Part shown: positions 4,171-29,214 of the stretch, one piece after another
How the letters are laid out: each line of letters opens with the position of its first letter
How positions within the stretch are numbered: the first letter of the stretch is position 1
From: Bifidobacterium longum subsp. longum JCM 1217
GTDB lineage: Bacteria; Actinomycetota; Actinomycetes; Actinomycetales; Bifidobacteriaceae
Assembly: GCF_000196555.1 (NCBI RefSeq)
Contig: NC_015067.1
Coordinates: forward strand, 390,001 to 422,000
Reading direction: 5' to 3'
Length of the DNA stretch: 32,000 nucleotides
Program-made: the position numbers and the translations under genes
The notes under the pieces: model-generated
What the model saw: only the letters and a program-made list of their open reading frames with translations
What the model was told of the DNA's origin: nothing
The model's database searches: none

Positions 4171-5079
4171 ATGCCCACCCAAAAACTACTCGAACGCAAA
4201 GCCCTGATCGTTGGTATCGTCATCAACGTGCTGCAGGTCTTAGCCGGCATGGCCGTGTTCTTCATGACCGGTCTCAAGGCCATGTTCCTCGACTTCTCCT
4301 TCACCGCGATTTCCGTCCTGTCCGGAATGGTGGCGGTGTACCTCTCGTCGCGCACGGTGCGAACCACCGAGCGCTTCCCCAATGGCATGTTCGCACTGGA
4401 ACCTATCTACGCGATCTGCAAGGCCATTTTCACCATGTCGTTGTTGGTGTATTCGCTGATTGACGTGTGCCGAGTAGCGTACGACTACTTCGTGTTCGGG
4501 TCCGGCGAACGCATTGAAACCGGCCCGGTGGTCATCTACGAGATCCTGACCGTAATCGTGTGCTTCAGCCTATACACGTATTACCGGCGCTCCAACCGAT
4601 CCATCGGCGATTCCAGCACCATGCTCACCGCCGAGTGCAAGAGCACGTTGGTCGACGGATCGATGTCGTTCGGCATCGGCGTAGTTGCCATCTTCCTGAT
4701 GCTGCTACCGGCCGGCGGTCCGCTTGACTTCCTGCACTACACCGGCGATTTCTTCATCACCGTGGCTTTGGTGGCATTGACCATCAAGGAGCCGTTCAGC
4801 GTGCTCAAAGAGGCGTTCGTGGAATTGGTCGGCGGCGTGCATGACGACGATGAAACCAACGCCTACGTGGAGGCCGAGGCACAGCGCCATCTGCCTGCCA
4901 ACACCGACTACGAGCAGACGCTGATCTTCAAGACCGGTATGAACTACACCGTTGACGTGTATCTGAGCGGCATCGGCGAAACCATTGATGTAGCTGACCT
5001 CATCGAATGCAAGCGCTCGCTGGAAAAGGAGCTCAGCAAGCGCCTGCACATCGTGGACGTGGACTTCGTGTTTGACTGA
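4171..5079 (+). CDS. Cation diffusion facilitator-like membrane transporter
   Basis: Start at ATG 4171 with an AAGGAAGG RBS. Six predicted TM helices plus a C-terminal cytoplasmic domain. The TM2-3 region (FLDFSFTAISVL..RFPNGMFALEP) resembles the cation_efflux family, but the usual His residues are not obvious. Confidence 0.55.
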   Translation: MPTQKLLERKALIVGIVINVLQVLAGMAVFFMTGLKAMFLDFSFTAISVLSGMVAVYLSSRTVRTTERFPNGMFALEPIYAICKAIFTMSLLVYSLIDVCRVAYDYFVFGSGERIETGPVVIYEILTVIVCFSLYTYYRRSNRSIGDSSTMLTAECKSTLVDGSMSFGIGVVAIFLMLLPAGGPLDFLHYTGDFFITVALVALTIKEPFSVLKEAFVELVGGVHDDDETNAYVEAEAQRHLPANTDYEQTLIFKTGMNYTVDVYLSGIGETIDVADLIECKRSLEKELSKRLHIVDVDFVFD

Positions 5080-5097
5080 TTGATGGGTTTGAAGCGA

Positions 5098-6747
5098 CTA
5101 CTTCAGACTCCAAGTGGAACCCTGCGGGCCGTCTTCGATGGCGATGCCGGCCTCGGTCAGGGCGTCGCGAATCTGATCGGCCTTGGCGAAATCCTTGGCC
5201 TTGCGAGCTTCGGCACGGGCGTTGAGCTGTTCGGCGATCAGTGCCTCCAGCGCTGCATGCTCGGGCGACTCGGCCGTGCCATCAGCGGCACCGCCGGCAG
5301 CGCCGGCGGACACCCACGGTTCGGCCAGCGGGTCCAGGCCCAAGGTGTCGAGCATGGCACGCACGGCGAGCAGCGCCTCACGCACCTCGGCCTTGGCGGT
5401 TTCGGAATCGGCGCGGTCAGCCAGCTGTGAAAGCAACGTATTGCCGGAACGGATGGCGGTGAAGATCGCGGCGGTTGCACCAGACACATTGACATCGTCA
5501 TTCATGGCGGCCACGAAATCGGCGGGCAAATCGTCGGCGGAGACGGCAGTGACTTCCTCGCGAGAAGGCTGTCCACCCAGCGCCACACCGGCACGCTCGA
5601 TGAAGTTCGAGACGCGGTCGTATGCGGCCTGCGCCTCGACCAGCGCCTGATCGGACCATTCGAGCATCGACCGGTACTGCACGGAGCCCAGGGCGTAACG
5701 CACCACCCAAGCGGAATGCTCAGCCAACACGCTCGGCACGGACAGGCCGGTGCCCAGCGACTTCGACATCTTCTCGCCCTTGGCGGTCACCCATGCCGAA
5801 TGCATCCAGCGCGCAGCGGAGGGGTAGCCGGCCGCACGGGTCTGAGCCATTTCGTTTTCGTGGTGGGGGAAGCGCAGATCCAAGCCGCCGCCGTGAATGT
5901 CGAAGCCATCGCCCAGGTAACGGTGGGACATGGCGGAGCATTCGATGTGCCAGCCAGGGCGGCCCACGCCAAACGGCGTCGACCAACGGGCGTCCTCGGG
6001 ATCGGTGTCCTTCGGAGCCTTCCACAGGGCGAAATCACGCGGATCATGCTTGTCGGGGGAGGCATCGGCCGGGTCGACCGGATTGTACTTGTCGGCACCG
6101 GTGGCGTCCACGGACGGGCCCATGCGGTCGGCCACGGCGGCGGCCTCATCGACTTCGGAGGTCTGCTTCTGGTGAGTGAGTTCGCCGTAATGCGGCCAGG
6201 ATGCCACATCGAAGTACACGTTGCCGGTGGGCTTGCCGTCCGCATCCGTGACCACATAGCCGTGACCGTTGTCGAGAATGCGCTGAATCAGGTCGATCAT
6301 GTCCGACATGTGGCCGGTGGCGCGAGGTTCCACAGTGGGCGGCAGTACGCCGAGCGTGTTGTATGCCTCGGTGAATTCGCGCTCGTAGTAATAGGCGCGG
6401 GCCCACCAACGCTGGCCTGCGGCCGCGGCCTTAACGAGAATCTTGTCGTCGATATCGGTCACATTACGCACAAAAGTGACTTTGTAGCCGAGCTTCAAAA
6501 ACCAGCGGCGCACGATGTCGAACGCCACGGCGGCACGGATATGGCCAATATGCGGTGACGATTGCACAGTCGCGCCACACACATAAATGCCGACTTCGCC
6601 CGGCTTGAGCGGCACGAAATGGCTGACCTGGTGCGAGGCGGTGTCATACAGATTCAGGCCTTCTGCGGCCTTGGCAACATGCACCGGCGTCAGGCTTGAA
6701 GGCATGACGGAAATGTTGAAATCCTGCGGTTCTTGGCTGTTTCCCAT
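5098..6747 (-). CDS. cysS: Cysteine--tRNA ligase
   Basis: HIGH motif (SPHIGHIRAAV) and KMSKS motif (KMSKSLG). The start is uncertain: ATG at 6747 (MGNSQEP) or 6705 (MPSSLTPV). The track start at 6861 is unlikely. Confidence 0.9.
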   Translation of the reverse strand: MGNSQEPQDFNISVMPSSLTPVHVAKAAEGLNLYDTASHQVSHFVPLKPGEVGIYVCGATVQSSPHIGHIRAAVAFDIVRRWFLKLGYKVTFVRNVTDIDDKILVKAAAAGQRWWARAYYYEREFTEAYNTLGVLPPTVEPRATGHMSDMIDLIQRILDNGHGYVVTDADGKPTGNVYFDVASWPHYGELTHQKQTSEVDEAAAVADRMGPSVDATGADKYNPVDPADASPDKHDPRDFALWKAPKDTDPEDARWSTPFGVGRPGWHIECSAMSHRYLGDGFDIHGGGLDLRFPHHENEMAQTRAAGYPSAARWMHSAWVTAKGEKMSKSLGTGLSVPSVLAEHSAWVVRYALGSVQYRSMLEWSDQALVEAQAAYDRVSNFIERAGVALGGQPSREEVTAVSADDLPADFVAAMNDDVNVSGATAAIFTAIRSGNTLLSQLADRADSETAKAEVREALLAVRAMLDTLGLDPLAEPWVSAGAAGGAADGTAESPEHAALEALIAEQLNARAEARKAKDFAKADQIRDALTEAGIAIEDGPQGSTWSLK

Positions 6748-7741: not shown

Positions 7742-10018
7742 ATGCCGACTTATGACATTGGACTGGAACACGTTTCGCTCGCTTTCGCTACCAAAACCAT
7801 CTTCACTGATGTAACGCAGGGTGTTTTTGAAGGCGACCGCATCGGCATCGTCGGCAAGAACGGCGACGGCAAATCCACGTTGCTGCACCTGTTCCGCGGT
7901 GCTCAGGAGCCGGATTCCGGCCGCGTGACAAAGCGTGGCGGACTCACGTTCGGCATGCTTGACCAGCGTGATCCCCTTGATGACAACGCCACCATTCGCG
8001 AAGCCGCACTTGAGGGGCGCGCCGACTACGAATGGGCGTCCGATAACACTTCCCGTGAAATCGTCGAGGCATTGCTCGGCGGCATGAGCCTGGATGCCAA
8101 GGTCGGCTCCTTGTCCGGCGGCCAGCGTCGCCGCGCCGATTTGGCCCGACTGCTGCTCAAGGATTGGGATATTCTTGCACTTGACGAGCCCACCAACCAT
8201 CTCGACGTGGTCACTATCCACTGGCTTGCCGAACATTTGAAGAACCGCTGGTCCAAAGGCCAGGGCGCTCTGTTGCTCGTGACCCACGATCGCTGGTTCT
8301 TGGACGAGGTCTGCGAATCGATGTGGGAAGTCCACGATGGCGTGATCGAGCCGTTCGAGGGCGGCTATTCCGCATATATGCTGCAGCGCGTGGAACGCGA
8401 TCGCCAAGCCGATGTGCGCGAAACCAAGCGCCGCAATCTGGCTCGCAAGGAGCTCGCATGGCTTTCCCGCGGTGCTCGTGCCCGCTCCACCAAGCAGAAG
8501 TTCCACGTCAAGGCCGCACGCGAATTGATTGCCGATGTGCCGCCGATGCGTAACACACTTGAACTGAAGCAAATGGCCACCTCCCGTCTCGGCAAACAGG
8601 TGGTCGATTTGGTCGACGTGACGCAGATTTTCGAAAAACCGCAGGGCATGGCCGATATCGACCCGGATGTGGCGGCGCTCTCCGCGTCCGCTTCCCGCGT
8701 GGATGTGGTCAACGCCATGTACGCCGAGCCGCAGCTGCATGGTTCCGTTGAGGTGGCGGTCACCGACATGACTGACCCGCGCCTGGTGGACGCCGGCGTG
8801 CCGGAAGCCGTCGAGTCCGCTGAGGAAGCGCGTAAGAAGGCCGAGGCTGAGAGCGGCAATCCGCAGCTTGCTGACGATCGCGAGGTTCGTCGCATGAACA
8901 CGGGTGGTGAAACCATCGGCGGTGGCACTGCTGCAACGGATTCGGATGATGACACTGCTGCAGCCGGTGTCACCTCGGCTGCACGCAAGGTGACGGTTTC
9001 CGGCCGCGAGATTCTTGACGATGTGACTTGGCTGATTGGCCCGGGTGACCGCTTCGGCATCGTCGGTGCGAATGGTGCCGGCAAGTCCACGCTGCTTAAG
9101 TTGATTGATGGCACACTCACCCCGACCGCAGGCCATGTGAACATTGGCAAGACGGTGAAGTTCGCGGTGCTCTCGCAGCGCCTCGATGAGCTGGAGAAGC
9201 TCGGCAAGTACAAGATCAAGGAAGTGCTTTCCCGCTATAAGCCGAGCTACATTGTGGATGGCAAGGAAGTGACGCCGGGACAGTTGATGGAGCGTCTCGG
9301 CTTCGAATCCGCCCAGCTGATGACGCCGATCCGCGATCTCTCCGGTGGTCAGAAGCGCCGCATGCAACTGCTGCTGATTCTGCTTGACGAGCCGAACGTG
9401 CTCATCATGGACGAGCCCGGCAACGATCTGGACACCGATATGCTCGCCGTGATGGAAGACCTGCTCGATACTTGGCCGGGCACGTTGATTGTGGTCTCCC
9501 ACGACCGGTACCTGCTGGAGCGCGTCACCGATCAGCAGTTCGCGCTGATTGGCGGCAAAGTACGTCACTTGCCCGGCGGCGTGCAGGACTACCTCGATAT
9601 GGTTGAGGCTATTAAGAACGGCAAGGGATTGCCGGCTGACACGCCTGGCTTCGCGGGCACCGGTAGCAGCTCGGCGAAGTCTGGTAAGGGTAAGGCGGCC
9701 GCCGTCAACGCTGCCGCATCTCTCCCTCAGTCCGCTTCGCGGATAGCTCCCTCGTCAGAGGGAGCCAATAACGGTGAGGACTCCACCTCGAAGCTCACCG
9801 GCAAGGCCTTCCACGAGGCATCCAAGCGCGTGAATGCCATCGAACGTAAGCTCGCTAAGCTTGAAGAGCAGAAGGCCGATCTCGAGGCGCAGATGGCCGC
9901 CCATGACCCGAGCGACTACGAGGGTCTCAACAAGCTCAATGAACAACTCACCGCCGTCAATACTGAAAGCGATGATCTCGAAGCCGAATGGCTCGAACTC
10001 TCCGAACAATTGGAGTAG
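7742..10018 (+). CDS. ABC-F family ATPase (Uup-like, no TM domain) with a long internal insertion
   Basis: Two ABC cassettes (Walker A GKNGDGKST and GANGAGKST; signatures LSGGQRRR and LSGGQKRR), an Arg/Lys-rich inter-domain linker, and a C-terminal coiled coil. Confidence 0.9.
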   Translation: MPTYDIGLEHVSLAFATKTIFTDVTQGVFEGDRIGIVGKNGDGKSTLLHLFRGAQEPDSGRVTKRGGLTFGMLDQRDPLDDNATIREAALEGRADYEWASDNTSREIVEALLGGMSLDAKVGSLSGGQRRRADLARLLLKDWDILALDEPTNHLDVVTIHWLAEHLKNRWSKGQGALLLVTHDRWFLDEVCESMWEVHDGVIEPFEGGYSAYMLQRVERDRQADVRETKRRNLARKELAWLSRGARARSTKQKFHVKAARELIADVPPMRNTLELKQMATSRLGKQVVDLVDVTQIFEKPQGMADIDPDVAALSASASRVDVVNAMYAEPQLHGSVEVAVTDMTDPRLVDAGVPEAVESAEEARKKAEAESGNPQLADDREVRRMNTGGETIGGGTAATDSDDDTAAAGVTSAARKVTVSGREILDDVTWLIGPGDRFGIVGANGAGKSTLLKLIDGTLTPTAGHVNIGKTVKFAVLSQRLDELEKLGKYKIKEVLSRYKPSYIVDGKEVTPGQLMERLGFESAQLMTPIRDLSGGQKRRMQLLLILLDEPNVLIMDEPGNDLDTDMLAVMEDLLDTWPGTLIVVSHDRYLLERVTDQQFALIGGKVRHLPGGVQDYLDMVEAIKNGKGLPADTPGFAGTGSSSAKSGKGKAAAVNAAASLPQSASRIAPSSEGANNGEDSTSKLTGKAFHEASKRVNAIERKLAKLEEQKADLEAQMAAHDPSDYEGLNKLNEQLTAVNTESDDLEAEWLELSEQLE

Positions 10019-10041
10019 CGGGAGAAACCGTAACGTTCACA

Positions 10042-10066
10042 AGGCCTCGGCAGTTTGCCGGGGCCT
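10042..10066. terminator. Hairpin between the convergent ABC-F and vapC genes
   Basis: AGGCCTCGG-CAGTTTG-CCGGGGCCT, a 9-bp stem including one G.T pair. Confidence 0.35.
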
Positions 10067-10070
10067 CCCG

Positions 10071-10490
10071 CTATGCAAACTCCCACGGATTAATCAATTC
10101 CACGTCGGTACCTTCGAAGTCCTTGATATTGCGCGTGGCTATGGCCGCATCCCAGGAACAGGCAATTGCCGCAATCATGGCGTCTTGAATACTGGTAGGT
10201 GTGCCCCTGTGTTCGCGTTCGACAAGGATATGGGCATAATCCGCAGCTGCCTGAGTGTCAAATGCGAACGTTCTGTCCTCTAATGTCATAAGCGCCAGCT
10301 TGACGGTCGTATCTGTGTACTTTCGTCGTTTGCCTTCAGGCATGCGACATATTCCGGCCAACAACTCGGCGACGGTGATGGCGGTGGTTGCCAAATTGCT
10401 TGTATCTTGGTTCCTCAGCCAATTGGCAACGTGTTCGTCTGGCTGTTTCTTGATGATTTCGCTGATGACGTTGGTGTCCAGAATAATCAT
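10071..10490 (-). CDS. vapC: PIN-domain toxin VapC
   Basis: 139 aa. N-terminus MIILDTNVISE with the conserved acidic residue. Sits 9 nt downstream of the antitoxin gene. Visibly lower GC than its neighbours. Confidence 0.85.
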   Translation of the reverse strand: MIILDTNVISEIIKKQPDEHVANWLRNQDTSNLATTAITVAELLAGICRMPEGKRRKYTDTTVKLALMTLEDRTFAFDTQAAADYAHILVEREHRGTPTSIQDAMIAAIACSWDAAIATRNIKDFEGTDVELINPWEFA

Positions 10491-10499
10491 GGCCGATTC

Positions 10500-10778
10500 C
10501 TATTCAAAAGATACTGGCGGTCGGGAATCGGCGGAATTTCGCTCGGATAGTGGGAGTTCCCCCTTGTCGAGTCCCTCAAAATCCATGTTCTTCATGAATT
10601 CGCGGATCTCGTCATAGAAATTGGTCTTTCGCGTGATTTCATGCGCCACCGTGCCAGCCAGCCATTCTTCAAGAATGGATCGCACCTGAGATTCCATGGA
10701 GCGGTTGTTTTTCTCAGCCACTTCTTTGAGCTGCTGAATCTGCTCATCGGGTATTTTTCGGATGGTCAATGTTGCCAT
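10500..10778 (-). CDS. vapB: Ribbon-helix-helix antitoxin (VapB/FitA/Arc-like)
   Basis: Start at MATLTIRKIPDEQIQQLKEVAEKNNRSMESQVRSIL (ATG 10778) with an AAGGAGG RBS. Typical RHH N-terminus and an acidic C-terminal tail. Confidence 0.8.
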   Translation of the reverse strand: MATLTIRKIPDEQIQQLKEVAEKNNRSMESQVRSILEEWLAGTVAHEITRKTNFYDEIREFMKNMDFEGLDKGELPLSERNSADSRPPVSFE

Positions 10779-10803
10779 GATGCACCTCCTTGTTGCTGTC
10801 ATA

Positions 10804-10813
10804 ATGCTAGCAT
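10804..10813. promoter_or_regulatory. Perfect 10-bp palindrome upstream of vapB (candidate autoregulatory operator)
   Basis: ATGCTAGCAT lies 26 nt upstream of the vapB ATG and overlaps a weak candidate promoter (ACGACA-17-TATGAC on the minus strand). Confidence 0.35.
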
Positions 10814-10863
10814 GAGGTGCTGTCGTTTTGCTTGCAGTACGGGTGATGAGGTATGCACGCATG

Positions 10864-10900
10864 AAAAAAGGCGGATATGCATCATGCGCATCCGCCTTTT
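10864..10900 (-). terminator. Intrinsic terminator of ilvBN (bidirectional shape)
   Basis: 9-bp stem AAGGCGGAT / ATCCGCCTT flanked by an A-run and a T-run. On the minus strand the stem is followed by TTTTTT, 34 nt after the ilvN stop. Confidence 0.7.
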
Positions 10901-10933
10901 GAGCTTGGACTGGGTCTTCCCGCAGTCGCCGAA

Positions 10934-11488
10934 TCAGCGCCCGGTAACCTCGGAACCGACGACCTTTTCGCTCAGGGCGCGCGGGCCGCGGGTCACGGCT
11001 ACGGCACCGGAGCGCACCAGCTCAATCACACCGTAATGCTCCAAAAGCCCCAGCAGGGCGTCGATCTTGCCTTCGGCACCGGTGGCCTCAATGGTCAGCG
11101 ATTCCGGATTCACGTCCACCACGCGCACGCGGAACAGACGCACGATCTCCAGCACGTCGGAACGGTTGGATTCGTTGGCGGCCACCTTGATGAGCACCAG
11201 TTCGCGTTCCACGGTGGAGTTCGGGTCGAGTTCCACGATTTTGAGCACATGCAGCAGCTTGTTGAGCTGCTTGATGATCTGCTCCAGCGGCACGGCCTCC
11301 ACGTCGGCGGTCACCGTGACGCGAGAGATGTCCGGACGCTCGGTGGGGGAGACGGACAGCGAGTTGATGTTGAACGCACGGCGGGCGAACAGGCCGGCGA
11401 TACGCGCCAGCACGCCTGGGCGGTTCTCCACCAGCACGGACAGCGTATGACGCTGGGAACCAGGCTGGGATGCAGGATAGTTAGCCAT
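10934..11488 (-). CDS. ilvN: Acetolactate synthase small (regulatory) subunit
   Basis: Start at MANYPASQ (ATG 11488) with a GGAGAGGAGA RBS. ACT domain HTLSVLVENRPGVLARIAGLFARRAFNINSL. Lies 16 nt after the ilvB stop. Confidence 0.9.
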   Translation of the reverse strand: MANYPASQPGSQRHTLSVLVENRPGVLARIAGLFARRAFNINSLSVSPTERPDISRVTVTADVEAVPLEQIIKQLNKLLHVLKIVELDPNSTVERELVLIKVAANESNRSDVLEIVRLFRVRVVDVNPESLTIEATGAEGKIDALLGLLEHYGVIELVRSGAVAVTRGPRALSEKVVGSEVTGR

Positions 11489-23269: not shown

Positions 23270-23292
23270 GTCGTCTAGGCTGTCTAGCTGCA

Positions 23293-23330
23293 CTGAGCCG
23301 CGACTAAGCCACAGTTGAGTCGCGGCTCAG
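23293..23330 (+). terminator. Hairpin downstream of rdgB
   Basis: 13-bp stem CTGAGCCGCGACT / AGTCGCGGCTCAG with a 12-nt loop. Confidence 0.5.
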
Positions 23331-23393
23331 CACTCAGCCCCCGAATCGGGCGAGTGTCTAGCAAGCGCCTATGACCTAGCAAGGGCGATACGA

Positions 23394-23426
23394 AAGAAGG
23401 CCGGCGCTTAGTGCGTCGGCCTTCTT
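23394..23426. terminator. Hairpin terminator 3' of the non-canonical tRNA (also faces rdgB)
   Basis: 10-bp stem AAGAAGGCCG / CGGCCTTCTT. On the minus strand it starts 11 nt after the tRNA 3' end and is followed by TCTTTCG. Confidence 0.5.
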
Positions 23427-23436
23427 GATGAACAAG

Positions 23437-23509
23437 AGCCACCCGATAGAATCGAACTACCGACCTTCCCACGAACGAGGGGGATGCTCTACCACTGAGC
23501 TAAGGTGGC
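23437..23509 (-). tRNA. tRNA-Thr(CGU)-like gene with an 8-nt anticodon loop (non-canonical)
   Basis: Minus strand reads GCCACCT TA GCTC AGTGGTA GAGC A TCCCC CTCGTTCG TGGGA AGGTC GGTAG TTCGATT CTATC GGGTGGC T. The acceptor, D and T arms are good and CGT sits at positions 34-36. The loop has one extra nucleotide, position 37 is not a purine, and 31-39 is a C.U mismatch. No encoded CCA. Confidence 0.65.
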
Positions 23510-23532
23510 GTGGCTTCAAGAGCCAAGTAGAG

Positions 23533-23561
23533 AATATAGCACTGCGTTTGATTCACTGCAA
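23533..23561 (-). promoter_or_regulatory. Sigma-70-like promoter for the non-canonical tRNA
   Basis: Minus strand reads TTGCAG - 17 nt - TATATT. The -10 ends 23 nt upstream of the mature tRNA 5' end. A small leader hairpin, TGGCT-TCAAG-AGCCA, lies at 23511..23525. Confidence 0.55.
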
Positions 23562-23715
23562 GCCGGACATTCATCATCTTTGGGCCATTGTTCTTTGGAC
23601 CATCGTGGCGGCAATAGTGCGAACGATGTGCACACCTCATCTGCTCGGCCGCCATTCGTCGTGTGCGCGCTATGCTAGCATGGTGAGCCTGATTGACTCG
23701 GAGGCAAAGGGAAGC

Positions 23716-24984
23716 ATGCGTGATTTTGTGCTGGTGAAGTTGACAGACGAGGAGTTCGATGATTTCTCCGCCAGGCATCCACAAGGCAATTTCCAACAAA
23801 CCTCGGCGATGGGACGCCTTCGCGCCGCGCAGGGGATCGACGTCGAATATTTGGCCCTCAAGGAGGGCGAGAAGATCGTCGCGGCGGCACTGTTCGAAAC
23901 TCACCGCTCTCGATTCTCTACATTTGCGGTCATCCATGATGGCCCGATGTGCGACTATCACGACACCGAAGCATTGACCTTCTTCATGGATGCGCTGAAA
24001 CGCCATGCCAAGGCAAAGGGTGCTTCACAGCTGGAAATCACCCCTGAATCCCCGTATCGGCTTCGCGACACCAATGGAGCTTCTTTGCCGGATGACCAGA
24101 ATGGCGCTCCCGACAATAAGCTGATAGAACAGCTCGAGGCGATCGGCTTCACTCATGGCGGTTTCACCGTGGGCTACACGGCGGTTCCGCGTTGGCGCTA
24201 CCTCAAGGATCTGACCGGCATTACCGATGAGAAAAGTCTGCTGAAGTCCTATGACAAGCGCACCCAGTGGAGCGTGAAGCGTGCCCAATCGATGGGTGTG
24301 CACGTGCGTGAGCTGTCGGACGACGAGCTGGGGGTATTCGCACGAATCGAGCAGCAAACCGCTGAACGCCGTAGCTTCGAATACCGTGGCGAAGCATATT
24401 TCCACCGTTTCAAGGAAGCGTTCGGCAGCAAAGCGCATTTTATGGTTGCCGAGATCCACATCGACGAATACGTAGCGGACATGACGTCCAAGCGTGAAGC
24501 GCTTTCGGCCAAGGTGGCGGCATTGACCGCCAAAAACGCCGAACACCCCACCACCAAAACCGAACGTCAGCTGGGGGAGGAGACCCGCAATCTGGCGGCA
24601 GCCGAAAAGCGCCTGAACGAGGCGGCCGAGTTCGCCAAAGACGGGGATGTACTGCCGGCTGCGGCATCACTATTCGTGGAGCATCCGCGCGAGGTCATCT
24701 ACCTGTTCTCCGGTAGCGTCGAGCAGTACAAGCCCTTCTACGCCTCCGCGCTGATTCAGCATGACGCGATGCTGCATTTCTGCGTGGAACACGGGCTGTC
24801 TCGCTACAACTTCTACGGCATCGACGGCGTCTTTGATGATCCCGATGACGAGGGGCGTGGTGTACTGGAGTTCAAGCAGGGCTTCAACGGATATGTCGAG
24901 GAACTTCCGGGCGAGTTCGTGCTGCCGGTCAAACCGGTCGCCTATGCCATGAAGCAATTTGCGCACAAGCTGCTGTCGCGGTAA
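23716..24984 (+). CDS. FemXAB-family aminoacyl-tRNA-dependent peptidoglycan cross-bridge transferase, paralog 1
   Basis: Start at MRDFVLVKLTDEEF (ATG 23716) with an AAGGGAAG RBS; the track ORF start at 23425 runs through the tRNA. Two GNAT-like halves are separated by a helical coiled-coil arm (EYVADMTSKREALSAKVAALTAK..). C-terminal RYNFYGI.G and LEFKQGFNG. Confidence 0.85.
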   Translation: MRDFVLVKLTDEEFDDFSARHPQGNFQQTSAMGRLRAAQGIDVEYLALKEGEKIVAAALFETHRSRFSTFAVIHDGPMCDYHDTEALTFFMDALKRHAKAKGASQLEITPESPYRLRDTNGASLPDDQNGAPDNKLIEQLEAIGFTHGGFTVGYTAVPRWRYLKDLTGITDEKSLLKSYDKRTQWSVKRAQSMGVHVRELSDDELGVFARIEQQTAERRSFEYRGEAYFHRFKEAFGSKAHFMVAEIHIDEYVADMTSKREALSAKVAALTAKNAEHPTTKTERQLGEETRNLAAAEKRLNEAAEFAKDGDVLPAAASLFVEHPREVIYLFSGSVEQYKPFYASALIQHDAMLHFCVEHGLSRYNFYGIDGVFDDPDDEGRGVLEFKQGFNGYVEELPGEFVLPVKPVAYAMKQFAHKLLSR

Positions 24985-25015
24985 ACGGACGCAGCACACA
25001 GGCCATTCCAGAGCC

Positions 25016-25039
25016 CAGAGTAACGATCAGAGTAACGAC
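25016..25039. repeat. 12-bp tandem duplication CAGAGTAACGAT / CAGAGTAACGAC in the fem1-fem2 spacer
   Basis: Two adjacent units just upstream of the fem2 RBS (AGAAGG). They share a GTAACG core with the 9-nt repeat at 15457..15517 when each is read on its coding strand. Confidence 0.7.
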
Positions 25040-25057
25040 AAGTAAGAAGGTTCGATT

Positions 25058-26368
25058 ATGACGCAATCCGATGCAGGCGTCGCCTCGCTCACCCCTACCA
25101 AGATCACTCCTGCCGAGCTGGATGCGTTCTCCGCAGCTCAAGTGCAAGGTAGTTTCCAGCAGACCTCGCAGATGGCCGCCATGGGTGCGTTCAACGGTCC
25201 GGTGGACTATGTGGGTGTCAAGCGCGGTGACAAGCTGATTGCCGCCTGCTACGTGGTGTACACGCGGTCCCGTTTCGGTTTGGAAGGCTCGGTCTGGTGC
25301 GGACCGCTGTGCGATTATGACAATCCACAGGTGGTTGAGGCGATGACCGAAGCCCTGCGTCGTTCGGCCAAGGCCCATCACGCCATCAGCGTATCCTGCT
25401 GGCCGGCCGCAGTCTACCGTCTGCATGATCTGGACGGCAAGCCGACCAGCGACCCGGACACCACGATGATGGACAACATGGCCCGCTTCGGTTGGAAACA
25501 TGGCGGTTTCACCGTGGGCTACGAATCCGTGGTGAACCGCTGGAACTTCGTCAAGGGGCTTGACGGCATTCATAATGAGAAGGAACTGCTGGCCTCGTTC
25601 TCCAAGTACCGCCGTAAGAACATCCGCATTGCCCAGGATTCCGGTCTGCGCGTGCGCCGACTGGAACGCGGCGAACTGAGCACTTTCGTCAAGCTGTGCG
25701 ATATGAGCGCCGCACGTCAAGGCTTCAAGAGCCGCGATCTGGCCTACTATGAGCGTCTGTTCGATACCTTCGGCGACCTGATCGAGTTCAAGGTGGTCGA
25801 AACCCATTTCGACGAATATCTGGACACCCTGCAATCCAAGCTGAATGCGGCCTCCAAAGACAAGCGCAACCTCGAACGCCTGCTCCAGCGCACGCAACAG
25901 CAGCCGGAAGGCACGGCCAAGAAGGGTGCTTCCGACCCGGCAACGCTGGAAAAGCGCATCGCCACCGCAGACAAGAAGATTGCGGCGCTGGAAAAGACCA
26001 TCGGCGAAGTCAATGGCATCATCGCTTCGGACGGCCCGGTCATTCCGGTGGAAGCCGGCGTCTACTTCTGGCATCCGAACGAGGTCGTCTGCCTGTCCAG
26101 CGGCGAGGACGATCGTTTCATGGATTACTACCCGTCTTCCCTAATCCACTTCGAGGCGATGCTTGACTGCATCGCCCGTGGCGTGGAGCGCTTCAACTTC
26201 TACGGCATTTCCGGTATTTTCGACGCCAACGATCCTTCCTACGGCGTCTGGCAGTTCAAGACTCGCTTCGGCGGATTCGTGGAAGAGCTTCCGGGCAAGT
26301 TCACGCTGCCGGTGGACGGACTGCGCTTCGGTGTATCCGAAGCAGCGCACAAGCTGCTGCATCGCTGA
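25058..26368 (+). CDS. FemXAB-family peptidoglycan cross-bridge transferase, paralog 2
   Basis: 436 aa, same architecture as paralog 1, with a divergent coiled-coil arm (LDTLQSKLNAASKDKRNLERLLQ..) and C-terminal RFNFYGISG and WQFKTRFGG. Confidence 0.85.
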   Translation: MTQSDAGVASLTPTKITPAELDAFSAAQVQGSFQQTSQMAAMGAFNGPVDYVGVKRGDKLIAACYVVYTRSRFGLEGSVWCGPLCDYDNPQVVEAMTEALRRSAKAHHAISVSCWPAAVYRLHDLDGKPTSDPDTTMMDNMARFGWKHGGFTVGYESVVNRWNFVKGLDGIHNEKELLASFSKYRRKNIRIAQDSGLRVRRLERGELSTFVKLCDMSAARQGFKSRDLAYYERLFDTFGDLIEFKVVETHFDEYLDTLQSKLNAASKDKRNLERLLQRTQQQPEGTAKKGASDPATLEKRIATADKKIAALEKTIGEVNGIIASDGPVIPVEAGVYFWHPNEVVCLSSGEDDRFMDYYPSSLIHFEAMLDCIARGVERFNFYGISGIFDANDPSYGVWQFKTRFGGFVEELPGKFTLPVDGLRFGVSEAAHKLLHR

Positions 26369-26417
26369 CAAACAGTGGCGAGCACGGACACAGAAATAAG
26401 GCACAGGTGACGACGAG

Positions 26418-27698
26418 ATGAGCGCGACTGCGAATCGAACAGATACGACGTATACGTTTGGCGTGATTACGCCCGAAGAGCTCGACCGGCTTTCCGAAGC
26501 CACAAGCCAGGGCAGCTTCCAGCAATGGTCCGGGCAGGTCCGTCTTGCCAAGATTCGTGGGCATGAAGCCGAATGCGTTGGCGTGTGCGACGCATCCGGC
26601 AATCTGGTAACCGGCTGCGTAATTCTGTACCTCAATGGTCGTTTCGGTGCAGATGGCTCCGTATATTTCGGCCCCATCGGCATTAGCGATGATCCGGCTC
26701 TGCTGCGGGCCATAACCGAGGCGATTTGCGAATCAGCCCGTCGCCACCATGCTGTTTCCGTAGCATGCTGGCCTAACGTCGCCTACCGTCTGTATTCCTC
26801 GGACGGGCAGCCCGACGGCGAGCCGAACGATGCACTACTGGCCGGATTCGCCGATGCCGGCTGGACGCATGGCGGATTCCATACCGGTTATGACGTGGTC
26901 TGTCAGTGGATGTACGTCAAGGATCTCACCGGCATCACCAACGGCAAGGAACTGCTGGCGTCATTCGGCAAACGTGCTCAGTGGAGTGTCAAGCGGGCGC
27001 AGTCGATGGGTGTGCACGTTCGTGAGATCGGCCCCGACGAGTTCGACGTGTTCGCCGATATCGAACGGCGGACCGGTGAACGCCGTGGGTTCGCGACGCG
27101 TGGCGCGGACTATTTCCGCCAGTTCAAGCAGGCGTATGGCGCAGATGCGCATTTCATGCTCGCGGAAATCCACATCGCCGAATATGTGGCGGATATGACC
27201 GCCAAGCGCGAGGCGTTGCAGGCCAAGGTAGCTCGATTGCAGGCGAAATACGATGAACGTCCGACCACGCGTATCGAACGTCAGCTGGGGGAGGAATCAC
27301 GCAATCTCGCGGCCGCCGACAAGCGTCTGGCTGAGGTGGAGGGATATGCCAGGAAGGGCGATGTGCTGCCGGCAGCGGCTTCAATGTTCGTCAGTCACCC
27401 CAATGAGGTGGTCTATCAGTATTCCGGTTCGTTGGAGGAGTACAAGCCGTTCTACGCCTCGGCGCTGATTCAGTACGAAGCAATGCTGCATCTATGTGTG
27501 GAGAAGGGCGTGAGCCGCTACAACTTCTACGGCATTTCCGGCGTGTTCGACGATCCGAACGACGAGGGCCGCGGCGTGCTGGAATTCAAGCAGGGCTTTA
27601 ACGGCTACGTCGAGCAGATGGTAGGAAAATTCACGTTGCCGGTGGATAAGTTCCGCTTCGGCGTGAGCAATCTGGCGCACAAGCTGCTGCGCCGGTAG
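26418..27698 (+). CDS. FemXAB-family peptidoglycan cross-bridge transferase, paralog 3
   Basis: 426 aa. The C-terminal half is very close to paralog 1 (QWSVKRAQSMGVHVRE, DVLPAAAS, YKPFYASALIQ, DEGRGVLEFKQGFNGYVE). The N-terminal half is closer to paralog 2. Confidence 0.85.
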   Translation: MSATANRTDTTYTFGVITPEELDRLSEATSQGSFQQWSGQVRLAKIRGHEAECVGVCDASGNLVTGCVILYLNGRFGADGSVYFGPIGISDDPALLRAITEAICESARRHHAVSVACWPNVAYRLYSSDGQPDGEPNDALLAGFADAGWTHGGFHTGYDVVCQWMYVKDLTGITNGKELLASFGKRAQWSVKRAQSMGVHVREIGPDEFDVFADIERRTGERRGFATRGADYFRQFKQAYGADAHFMLAEIHIAEYVADMTAKREALQAKVARLQAKYDERPTTRIERQLGEESRNLAAADKRLAEVEGYARKGDVLPAAASMFVSHPNEVVYQYSGSLEEYKPFYASALIQYEAMLHLCVEKGVSRYNFYGISGVFDDPNDEGRGVLEFKQGFNGYVEQMVGKFTLPVDKFRFGVSNLAHKLLRR

Positions 27699-27780: not shown

Positions 27781-28782
27781 TCACACGCCCATCAGCGCGT
27801 GAGCCACAGCCATCATCACCAGTGAAATCATCGCGGTGATTGCCAGCGAGAAGCCGGCCAGTTTGGCGTTGCCGAGTACTTTGTCGGTGAACAGCGTGGA
27901 GAAAATGGCGATCGGAGCCAACGCGCAGATCACCATCACGGCGCGAATCGAAGCCGAGAACGGCAGCAGGAGCCACGCGATCAACGCGAAGGCGACGCTG
28001 AACGGTATACGCCAAGCGATGACGGCCATGACTTCCTTCACGTCATGCTTGGATTGGGGCAGGTCCATGAGCATGCCCACCATCAGCATCGACACCAGCG
28101 CGTTGGCGCCGCTCAATGGCTGGGTTATAGAGGCGATCCAATCGGGAATCTTCACGTTGGCGACGGTCAACACGATCATGAGCAGATACGTGTCGAACGG
28201 CACCGAGCCGAAGAAGCTCTTGCCGATGGTGCGCAGCAATGCGCGGCGGGCAAGCCGTTTGGCGTCGCGATCCTTGGGCTTTTCGTACGGTAGGGTGGGA
28301 GCCGAACCGGCGTGTTGTTCGGCAAGTGTTTTGCCGGGCTGAATATGCAGCAGTTGCTGGGTGAGCACATTGGTGCCGGCGGCCACCATCACGCAGTTGC
28401 CGATATCGAACATCGCAGCCGGCACCACCGCGCCCGCACCCCAGAATGACTGGACGACCGGGAAAGAAAAACAGCCGAGATTGAAGCCGGCACCGTTGAG
28501 CATCAGGAAGGCGCGGTCGGTCACATTGCGCTTGCGGGTGGCCAGAAAGATGAACACGACCGGGATAAAAGCAAACAGGAATGCGAATACCGAAATAAGC
28601 AGCAGCGAGATGTCATGCGGATTGGTGGCGAACGAGTATACGATGGCACCGGGCAGCACGATGTTGAATTCCGCGGTTTGCAACACGCGATAATCCTTCT
28701 GCCCGAACAGGCCGAACCGCTTGAACAGATAGCCGGCGAGAATGATCAGCAACAGACCAACCGGCGTAAGAATGGCGGACAT
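27781..28782 (-). CDS. AEC (auxin efflux carrier / malate permease-like) family transporter
   Basis: Start at MSAILTPVG (ATG 28782) with an AAGGAGAG RBS; the track start at 28803 is a GTG. About 10 TM helices in a two-halves architecture. Confidence 0.8.
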   Translation of the reverse strand: MSAILTPVGLLLIILAGYLFKRFGLFGQKDYRVLQTAEFNIVLPGAIVYSFATNPHDISLLLISVFAFLFAFIPVVFIFLATRKRNVTDRAFLMLNGAGFNLGCFSFPVVQSFWGAGAVVPAAMFDIGNCVMVAAGTNVLTQQLLHIQPGKTLAEQHAGSAPTLPYEKPKDRDAKRLARRALLRTIGKSFFGSVPFDTYLLMIVLTVANVKIPDWIASITQPLSGANALVSMLMVGMLMDLPQSKHDVKEVMAVIAWRIPFSVAFALIAWLLLPFSASIRAVMVICALAPIAIFSTLFTDKVLGNAKLAGFSLAITAMISLVMMAVAHALMGV

Positions 28783-28846
28783 ACACTTCTCTCCTTGACT
28801 CACACAGGCTCATGGCGCACAGGCTCAGACCCACAATGCTGTGACC

Positions 28847-28852: not shown

Positions 28853-28973
28853 TTTGCCGCCTTGGCATTGCCATATGTAGAGGCGTCCGCAAGGGCTTGC
28901 AATTGCCTCACGCATATACGAAAAGCCTCCCGGAATCGTTGGCAATCCAATGCTTCCAAGAGGCTCAAGCCGG

Positions 28974-29054
28974 TGCGCGAGATGGGACTTGAACCCACAC
29001 GTCAAAGACACAGGAACCTAAATCCTGCGCGTCTACCAATTCCGCCACTCGCGC
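28974..29054 (-). tRNA. tRNA-Leu(UAG)
   Basis: Minus strand reads GCGCGAG..CTCGCGC A. Anticodon arm CAGGA-TTTAGGT-TCCTG, a long variable arm, T-loop TTCAAGT. CCA not encoded. Confidence 0.85.
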
Positions 29055-29135: not shown

Positions 29136-29141
29136 CATCCG

Positions 29142-29214
29142 AGCCACTTGTCAGAATCGAACTGACGACCTGCTCATTACGAGTGAGCCGCTCTACCGAC
29201 TGAGCTAAAGTGGC
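29142..29214 (-). tRNA. tRNA-Thr(CGU), canonical
   Basis: GCCACTT TA GCTC AGTCGGTA GAGC G GCTCA CTCGTAA TGAGC AGGTC GTCAG TTCGATT CTGAC AAGTGGC T. All stems are Watson-Crick, the loop is 7 nt, and position 37 is A. Confidence 0.9.

Follow-up and report, generated by a model that had tools for sequence, protein, structure and literature searches.

A conserved, weakly EF-Tu-binding tRNA-Thr beside Fem transferase genes in Bifidobacterium: a candidate threonine donor for the peptidoglycan bridge

Introduction

Why would a gut bifidobacterium keep, next to a set of cell-wall transferase genes, a threonine tRNA that looks unfit for translation, when a normal tRNA with the same anticodon is encoded 5.6 kb away? 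The question is raised by a locus of Bifidobacterium longum subsp. longum JCM 1217, which lies in a window of 32,000 nucleotides (the whole stretch of DNA that was analysed; contig NC_015067.1, positions 390,001 to 422,000). Here, an aberrant tRNA-Thr(CGU) gene, referred to below as the variant tRNA, and three tandem genes for FemAB-family aminoacyl transferases (fem1, fem2 and fem3) are transcribed divergently from the two sides of a 206-bp spacer. The explanation considered best, with a probability of roughly 0.55, is that the variant tRNA can be charged with threonine, is excluded from translation, and serves as the threonine donor to a Fem transferase for the interpeptide bridge of the peptidoglycan. 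The evidence comprises a published weakness in binding elongation factor Tu (EF-Tu), a set of structural defects retained across species, a constant proximity to Fem genes, and the known presence of threonine in the bridge of B. longum.

Organization of the locus

A first-pass annotation of the window, made from sequence alone, had described the three tandem Fem genes and, 206 bp away and divergent from them, an aberrant tRNA-Thr, and this arrangement was recovered by ARAGORN, Rfam and Pfam (PF02388). It had also placed a canonical tRNA-Thr(CGU) on the same strand 5.6 kb away, so that the segment with fem1-3, an AEC gene and a tRNA-Leu lies between two tRNA-Thr(CGU) genes; both statements are correct (ARAGORN, Rfam, Pfam). 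The features are as follows.

23437-23509 (23436/7-23509 in ARAGORN/Rfam), minus strand: the variant tRNA, an aberrant tRNA-Thr(CGU); ARAGORN, Rfam tRNA model at 47.6 bits, homologue alignment.
23716-24984, plus strand: fem1, FemAB-family aminoacyl transferase of clade A; Pfam PF02388, E = 2.7e-140, homologues, tree.
25058-26368, plus strand: fem2, FemAB-family transferase of clade B1; Pfam PF02388, E = 2e-133, match to PDB 1LRZ, tree.
26418-27698, plus strand: fem3, FemAB-family transferase of clade C; Pfam PF02388, E = 8.2e-108, tree.
27781-28803, minus strand: AEC/Mem_trans membrane transporter gene; Pfam PF03547, synteny.
28972-29054, minus strand: canonical tRNA-Leu(UAG); ARAGORN, Rfam.
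29141-29214, minus strand: canonical tRNA-Thr(CGU), the decoding copy; ARAGORN, Rfam at 71.2 bits, summed EF-Tu contribution of +0.1 (see below).

The three Fem open reading frames (ORFs) all cover positions 1-406 of the 406 positions of the FemAB profile (PF02388; E values from 1e-108 to 1e-140), and the ORFs neighboring the variant tRNA are all intact and free of frameshifts. The spacer is measured to the fem1 ATG at 23716, and an alternative in-frame ATG start is found at 23680. On the upstream side the locus is flanked by genes for RNase PH and Ham1/RdgB, and on the downstream side by PGI (Pfam). The Fem1 protein belongs to a cluster at 90% identity that also includes ACD98475.1 of B. longum DJO10A.

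Structure of the variant tRNA

The sequence of the variant tRNA, divided by structural elements, is GCCACCU-UA-GCUC-AGUGGUA-GAGC-A-UCCCC-CUCGUUCG-UGGGA-AGGUC-GGUAG-UUCGAUU-CUAUC-GGGUGGC-U. Its acceptor stem, D arm, variable loop and T loop are canonical, with AGUGGUA as the D loop and UUCGAUU as the T loop. The acceptor stem begins with G1-C72, C2-G71, C3-G70, A4-U69 and C5-G68 and is followed by the discriminator U73, with no encoded CCA; these five pairs and U73 are shared with the canonical tRNA-Thr(CGU). Threonine identity rests on acceptor-stem pairs plus anticodon nucleotides, and the variant tRNA keeps the set G1-C72, C2-G71, G35 and U36, positions which we take over from the E. coli and T. 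thermophilus identity sets. Because this set is kept, threonyl-tRNA synthetase (ThrRS) would be expected to charge the molecule with threonine.

The aberration that the first-pass annotation had noticed is confirmed and lies in the anticodon arm (UCCCC-CUCGUUCG-UGGGA), which counts 18 nucleotides instead of the normal 17 and accounts for the low covariance score (47.6 bits, against 71.2 for the canonical copy). In addition, position 37 is a U, where the canonical copy, with its 17-nucleotide arm, has A37. The tRNAs that read ANN codons carry a modified A (t6A) at this position. Judged from its sequence, the variant tRNA should therefore decode poorly, since it combines an extra arm nucleotide with a U in place of the t6A-bearing A. 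The arm model that fits all homologues consists of a 7-nucleotide loop (N32-U33-N34-G35-U36-U37-N38), a closing pair C31-G39 and a bulged pyrimidine on the 3' strand; an arm with an 8-nucleotide loop and a C·Y mismatch is no less admissible, and the thermodynamic fold of the arm is weak and ambiguous.

Weak binding to EF-Tu

The second peculiarity of the variant tRNA is its T stem (G49-C65, G50·U64, U51-A63). When the additive T-stem values of Table 2 of Schrader and Uhlenbeck 2011 (PMC3239215) are summed, the contribution to EF-Tu binding amounts to +2.0 kcal/mol for the variant tRNA of B. longum and of a metagenomic relative (locus L051, see below) and to +1.8 kcal/mol for that of the other species, whereas the canonical tRNA-Thr(CGU) copies reach +0.1. 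The canonical copy of the window, with G-C, U-A and C-G in its T stem, is predicted to have normal EF-Tu binding. Binding of the variant tRNA is thus predicted to be 1.7-1.9 kcal/mol weaker than that of the canonical copy. The largest destabilizing contribution (+1.4) comes from G50·U64, which is invariant.

This weakness had already been published and measured, and it is experimentally established. Table 4 of the same paper (PMC3239215) contains an entry "Thr CGU Bifidobacterium longum", for which another gene copy is present, with a calculated ΔG of -8.1 compared with a mean of -10.0 for the isoacceptor; the measured ΔG was -8.3±0.5 in a whole-body chimera and -8.3±0.3 when the T stem was placed in tRNA-Phe. 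The entry can be identified with the variant tRNA because the difference of 1.9 kcal/mol equals that between the two genes of the window. Its authors pointed to this tRNA, which has a normal second copy, as a candidate for a function outside translation. The paper makes no mention of the anticodon-arm defect, the Fem neighborhood, the threonine in the bridge, or homologues in other species. The first-pass annotation had supposed that the whole arrangement was undescribed; within the literature searched, this stands for the connection with Fem enzymes and the cell wall, and it fails for the weak EF-Tu binding and the probable non-translational role. What is new here is the Fem linkage, the conserved defect of the anticodon arm and the distribution across species.

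Conservation across Bifidobacterium

Besides the window, the variant tRNA is present in the metagenome-assembled genome Map_4_007, in a second B. longum lineage (L049), in the relative at L051 (whose Fem1 is 80% identical), and in B. miconisargentati, B. callitrichidarum, sp. SO4, B. scaligerum and B. colobi. This distribution covers at least seven Bifidobacterium species, between which the tRNA is 90-100% identical, with four distinct sequences in total. The 100-nucleotide flanks, on the other hand, align only at noise level (55-68%), and the Fem proteins of the same genomes can be as little as ~50% identical. The pairing of this extra isoacceptor gene with a canonical one of the same anticodon, seen in the window, is repeated at L007, L016, L019, L049 and L051.

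The defects themselves are part of what is conserved. The 18-nucleotide arm, U37 and G50·U64 are retained in all four distinct sequences, and variation within the arm is limited to positions 32, 34 and 38 and to the extra nucleotide, with U33, G35, U36 and U37 invariant. Position 34 can be C or U, as illustrated by the UGU anticodon of L051 in place of CGU, while G1-C72, C2-G71, G35 and U36 do not vary in any of the four. From sequence comparison, this pattern fits the requirements of ThrRS identity, not those of a single codon. All 21 pairs of the tRNA are standard in every aligned sequence; in the T stem, both partners are exchanged at 51-63 (U-A or G·U) and at 52-62 (A-U or G-C), with pairing maintained. 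The alignment has only three distinct rows, which leaves the statistical support for these compensatory changes weak: the observed value is reached in 63 of 500 shuffles. No relics of the gene were found in species that lack it. Taken as a sequence record, these features identify the variant tRNA as a real gene under selection, not a relic.

A pattern scan of 185,579 species representatives for tRNAs with an 18-nucleotide arm and TCGT returned five matches in Bifidobacterium and two false ones; the latter were rejected as canonical actinobacterial threonine tRNAs with a 6-nucleotide variable loop. No match came from the representative of B. longum, presumably because it is masked. The UGU variant of L051 escapes this pattern, and absences outside the inspected loci are therefore not firm. 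A scan of metagenomes with a relaxed anticodon and a non-C at position 32 yielded unrelated tRNAs only and no new members of the family. Among the metagenome matches (L020-L048), several environmental tRNAs have 18 nucleotides between the D stem and the variable loop, one identical sequence being shared by L021, L026, L041 and L046; they are unrelated to the variant tRNA.

Transcription signals

The variant tRNA and the Fem operon appear to be expressed from separate signals, for which the following candidates were read from the sequence or from folds.

23533-23561, minus strand: promoter-like elements of the variant tRNA, with an extended -10 TGcTATATT (23541-23533), a weak -35 TTGCAG (23561-23556) and a spacer of 17 nucleotides; read from sequence.
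23511-23525, minus strand: 5-bp hairpin in the 5' leader, UGGCU-cuuga-AGCCA, ending one base before the 5' end of the tRNA; fold.
23394-23426, minus strand: terminator-type hairpin directly 3' of the tRNA; -22 kcal/mol, z = -4.8, 0 of 200 shuffles as stable.
23671-23676, plus strand: candidate -10 of the fem operon, TATGCT, ~40 nucleotides upstream of the fem1 ATG; inferred from sequence.

A -10 of the TGnTAtAtT type recurs upstream of the variant tRNA in the flanks of L007, L011, L016, L019 and L051, and a consensus scanner called none of the promoter elements of the tRNA. Strong hairpins of unrelated sequence followed by U runs also stand behind the tRNA in L051 (-27.4 kcal/mol) and B. scaligerum (-20.7 kcal/mol), and z values in the three species range from -4.8 to -6.1; the terminator of the window was missed by a simple scanner because its U run is short. 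In its sequence features, the variant tRNA looks like a monocistronic unit lying back to back with the fem promoter region. On the fem side, the TATGCTAGCAT/TATGCTATCA motif is retained upstream of fem1 in L007, L008 and L049. No T-box or other Rfam element was found in the fem leader or in the spacer between the tRNA and fem1.

The leader hairpin is not significant by its energy alone (z ~0). Hairpins occupy the same position elsewhere, as GGCC/GGCC in L051 (8202-8219) and in longer form in L007 (9829-9860) and L016 (12729-12760), and one compensatory change, from U-A to C-G, is seen in L051. The end of the leader, GCCAC, is a direct repeat of the first five nucleotides of the tRNA (GCCAC|GCCAC), which might give the 3' acceptor strand of the precursor a second pairing partner.

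The region between Ham1 and the tRNA or fem1 also holds long perfect or near-perfect palindromes (23288-23335 in the window, 9600-9720 in L007, 9640-9790 in L001), which differ between species and give spurious weak matches to microRNA-type Rfam models; they are probably terminators or intergenic repeat elements.

Fem enzymes, genomic linkage and cell-wall chemistry

The bridge of B. longum was resolved by liquid chromatography-mass spectrometry (LC-MS) of muropeptides as Ser-Ala-Thr-Ala, and that of B. breve as Gly (10.1101/2023.04.17.537164). The presence of Ser, Ala and Thr stated in the first-pass annotation is thereby borne out. For B. breve, the pattern scan of the 185,579 representatives gave no match to the variant tRNA, a result that stands on that scan alone, the locus itself not having been inspected.

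In every genome where the variant tRNA was found, it lies less than 2 kb from Fem genes, in one of three layouts. In the most frequent one, it sits between Ham1 and fem1 and is divergent from the latter (B. longum, B. miconisargentati, B. callitrichidarum, sp. SO4 and B. scaligerum). The second layout, known from L051 (JGI metagenome 3300044569), has the same position with an inserted alpha-amylase-family gene (8349-9809, minus strand). In B. colobi, the tRNA lies instead on the downstream side of the AEC gene, where it takes the third place in a cluster with tRNA-Thr and tRNA-Leu. In B. scaligerum the downstream synteny is broken and the linkage of tRNA and fem is retained. Five species with two Fem genes each lack the variant tRNA at the locus and show no detectable relic of it: B. 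scardovii, B. pseudocatenulatum, a catenulatum-like genome, B. pseudolongum and B. lemurum. B. jacchi, with three Fem genes, is uninformative because an assembly gap falls in its Ham1-fem spacer.

Fem2 is the best guess for the enzyme that would add threonine. Its orthologues at 78% identity or above form a narrow group, with a gap down to 49% if chimeras are set apart. All those with a readable locus (79-83% in B. miconisargentati, B. callitrichidarum, sp. SO4 and L051, plus B. longum itself) come from genomes that carry the variant tRNA, and none at or above 78% was found in the five inspected species without it. Orthologues of Fem1 occur in species both with and without the tRNA (homologues, tree). 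A comparison with PDB structures, which covered Fem2 among the three proteins, aligned it end to end with S. aureus FemA (1LRZ; E = 5.7e-35, residues 14-426 against residues 4-408 of 1LRZ), including the region of the helical arm; it also aligns with FmhB (6SNR), helical-arm region included. For staphylococci, it has been proposed that the D and T regions of the non-proteinogenic (NP) tRNAs are recognized by the helical arm of Fem enzymes (Rietmeyer et al. 2021).

In the proposed mechanism, the variant tRNA would form a transcript of its own, bounded by a promoter and a terminator that serve no other gene, and ThrRS would attach threonine to it. Affinity for EF-Tu would be ~20-fold lower on account of the T stem (G49-C65, G50·U64, U51-A63 or G51·U63), leaving a free pool of Thr-tRNA. 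This pool would be used by a neighboring FemA-like transferase to add the L-Thr of the Ser-Ala-Thr-Ala bridge. Fem2, if it is that enzyme, would recognize the body of the variant tRNA and so specify the position of threonine in the bridge.

In the second B. longum lineage (L049), found in human gut metagenomes, a single chimeric Fem gene (10001-11275, protein P0072) replaces fem2 and fem3. The N-terminal ~150-170 residues of P0072 are identical to Fem2 and its C-terminal ~225-250 residues are 98-100% identical to Fem3, a structure that, from the sequence, is the product of a deletion through recombination between Fem paralogs. P0072 was found on 13 contigs, and P0070, P0073, P0033 and P0029, with similarly mixed identity, may be related alleles. 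In their bridge chemistry, the chimeric strains may depart from typical B. longum.

Other variation at the locus concerns the neighboring genes. The AEC/Mem_trans gene adjoins the fem cluster in nearly all loci (L001, L003, L005, L007, L008, L016, L018, L019 and L049) and is absent in B. scaligerum, where an amino-acid permease and other genes replace the AEC-tRNA-PGI segment beyond fem3 and an LPG-synthase-like gene follows ~7 kb beyond fem3. In the same species (L017), a phage-type integrase and small ORFs occupy 4529-5794, just past the NAPRTase gene and ~4 kb from the variant tRNA. The Ham1-fem1 spacer of B. jacchi (L008, 9100-9720) is ~1.1 kb long, expanded by repeat units (…gcgcaagaaaatctcgaa…/…ccgagaaaaccttgcgc…).

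Weighing the explanations

One alternative is that the variant tRNA has no function and is a tRNA-Thr duplicate in decay. A low covariance score, a malformed anticodon arm and a nearby canonical paralog are what a pseudogene would be expected to show. However, this explanation is strongly disfavored and the least probable of all, given that the same tRNA sequence recurs in species with unalignable flanks and with Fem proteins of ~50% identity, that the changes in its T stem are compensatory, that promoter and terminator signals are retained, and that neither intermediate forms of decay nor relics occur in species without it. A functional tRNA could still be a specialized decoder, reading a four-base codon, promoting +1 frameshifting at ACG/ACA sites or acting as a low-efficiency spare for threonine. 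The retained U33 and threonine anticodon would suit such a role, and so would the 8-nucleotide loop, as in classical frameshift-suppressor tRNAs, that the arm acquires when C31·Y40 is drawn as an open mismatch. Delivery to the ribosome is nevertheless disfavored by an EF-Tu affinity that is, by measurement and prediction, ~1.7-1.9 kcal/mol below that of normal threonine tRNAs, and at position 37 a U stands where the reading of ANN codons requires a modified purine. The canonical copy already supplies the same anticodon, none of the intact neighboring ORFs contains a frameshift, and the change from CGU to UGU in one species (L051) does not fit a single fixed recoding site. A decoding role is accordingly unlikely.

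A more serious competitor accepts that the variant tRNA works outside translation and gives it a task unrelated to Fem: a regulatory ligand, a decoy or sensor for ThrRS, or a donor to another aminoacyl-tRNA-dependent transferase, its position beside fem being a by-product of an origin by duplication within the tRNA cluster next door. From the arm defects and the weak EF-Tu binding it follows only that the tRNA is not for translation, and other weakly binding tRNAs without a known function exist (H. pylori Glu and S. cellulosum Ala; PMC3239215). In B. colobi the variant tRNA belongs to the tRNA-Thr/tRNA-Leu cluster, and no Fem clade is strictly associated with it. Against this stand the fem leader and the spacer, in which neither a T-box nor any other known RNA element was found, and the fact that no other aminoacyl-tRNA-dependent enzyme is a conserved neighbor, the LPG-synthase-like gene being found only in B. 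scaligerum, ~10 kb off. The Fem genes are the only conserved neighbors known to use aminoacyl-tRNA, and the bridge of B. longum contains threonine. Such a Fem-independent role is doubtful, with odds clearly better than those of a decoder.

Several observations weigh against the cell-wall donor itself. A single Fem clade tracking the variant tRNA was looked for and rejected: clade B divides into B1 (with the tRNA), B2 (without) and B3 (with), and is not monophyletic for its presence. B2, the clade nearest to Fem2, occurs in B. pseudocatenulatum and B. lemurum, both without the tRNA; B. scaligerum and B. colobi have it and carry only a distant B3 enzyme, B. colobi with a single Fem gene at the locus. 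The Fem1 of B. scardovii is 82% identical to that of B. longum, yet the tRNA is missing there, and the B. longum lineage with the Fem2/Fem3 chimera retains it. The co-localizations are not independent, since the whole locus is syntenic across the genus, and the adjacency may be historical, left by a local duplication in the tRNA-Thr/tRNA-Leu cluster, which adjoins fem in almost all bifidobacteria, as the layout of B. colobi suggests. On the biochemical side, threonine is one of four bridge residues and the drain on the Thr-tRNA pool would therefore be small, no dedicated Ser or Ala tRNA was seen, and the extra arm nucleotide might impair ThrRS too. Murein data were not found in the literature for B. 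callitrichidarum, B. scaligerum, B. colobi or B. miconisargentati. The expression of the variant tRNA, its charging, its exclusion from the ribosome and its use by a Fem enzyme are inferred.

The dedicated threonine-donor module put forward in the first-pass annotation thus survives in part. It is favored by the published weak EF-Tu binding, by the retention of the defects in at least seven species, and by the maintenance of G35, U36 and the acceptor identity pairs while position 34 is C or U; it is weakened by the absence of a single Fem clade that tracks the tRNA and by an adjacency that origin from the tRNA-Thr/tRNA-Leu cluster would also explain. Of the comparison that it had called for, across species of known bridge chemistry, the genomic part has the same two sides, as the tRNA is within 2 kb of Fem genes wherever it was found and the cases are neither independent nor tied to one clade; the co-occurrence with bridge threonine is seen in B. 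longum. The cell-wall donor remains the best explanation of the whole. Its fullest form, in which a subset of bifidobacteria independently evolved a dedicated cell-wall tRNA-Thr with two lesions against translation and its own transcription unit beside the Fem genes, probably read by Fem2, stands at about even odds.

Comparison with known systems

The best understood cell-wall tRNAs are the NP1-NP3 tRNA-Gly of S. aureus and S. epidermidis, donors for FmhB, FemA and FemB, and these two species are the only ones in which dedicated cell-wall tRNAs have so far been detected (Rietmeyer et al. 2021). The variant tRNA resembles them as an extra isoacceptor beside a normal copy that retains the predicted synthetase identity elements and binds EF-Tu poorly through weakened T-stem pairs at 49-65, 50-64 and 51-63. 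As in staphylococci, the bridge of B. longum, presumably Fem-dependent, contains the cognate amino acid, and Fem2 includes the helical-arm region. The differences begin with the amino acid (threonine) and the phylum (Actinobacteria), and extend to the T stem, where G50·U64 and U-A or G·U at 51-63 take the place of A-U/U-A/A-U. The staphylococcal tRNAs replace G18G19 with UU or CU in the D loop and UUC with UGC or UGU in the T loop, whereas the variant tRNA keeps GG and UUCGAUU; it would therefore be an independent analogue and not a member of the NP lineage. It further differs in its extra anticodon-arm nucleotide, its U37 and its location next to fem genes, and in that its use by Fem enzymes is a proposal.

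FemX of Weissella viridescens (tRNA-Ala) and MurM of Streptococcus pneumoniae (tRNA-Ala/Ser) transfer L-amino acids to position 3 of the stem peptide, as would the Fem family of B. longum; unlike the arrangement proposed here, they draw on the ordinary translational tRNA pool and have no dedicated tRNA gene. Unlike Fem2, FemX of W. viridescens has no helical arm and reads the acceptor arm only (Rietmeyer et al. 2021). The tRNA-Glu of H. pylori and the tRNA-Ala(CGC) of Sorangium cellulosum are, like the variant tRNA, second gene copies with an EF-Tu-weak T stem (PMC3239215); no link to an enzyme that uses aminoacyl-tRNA is known for them, whereas the variant tRNA adjoins a candidate set. No connection between a Bifidobacterium tRNA and Fem enzymes was found in the literature searched, though a link of this tRNA to peptidoglycan may already have been made in Dare and Ibba 2012 or Shepherd and Ibba 2013.

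Implications

If the cell-wall donor is real, the variant tRNA would extend the non-proteinogenic cell-wall tRNAs beyond Staphylococcus and to threonine for the first time, and no such tRNA before it would have been genetically linked to the transferases that it feeds. The variant tRNA would also represent a different way of disabling a tRNA for decoding, and would explain the orphan observation of 2011 that a tRNA-Thr of B. longum binds EF-Tu weakly. The variant tRNA, the three Fem genes and the natural Fem2/Fem3 chimeric alleles would together offer a genetic handle on an ordered four-residue bridge, a structure that affects the stiffness of the wall and the muropeptides seen by the host. 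The splitting of aminoacyl-tRNA pools between the ribosome and the cell wall would then be a recurrent solution, at work in a major gut commensal.

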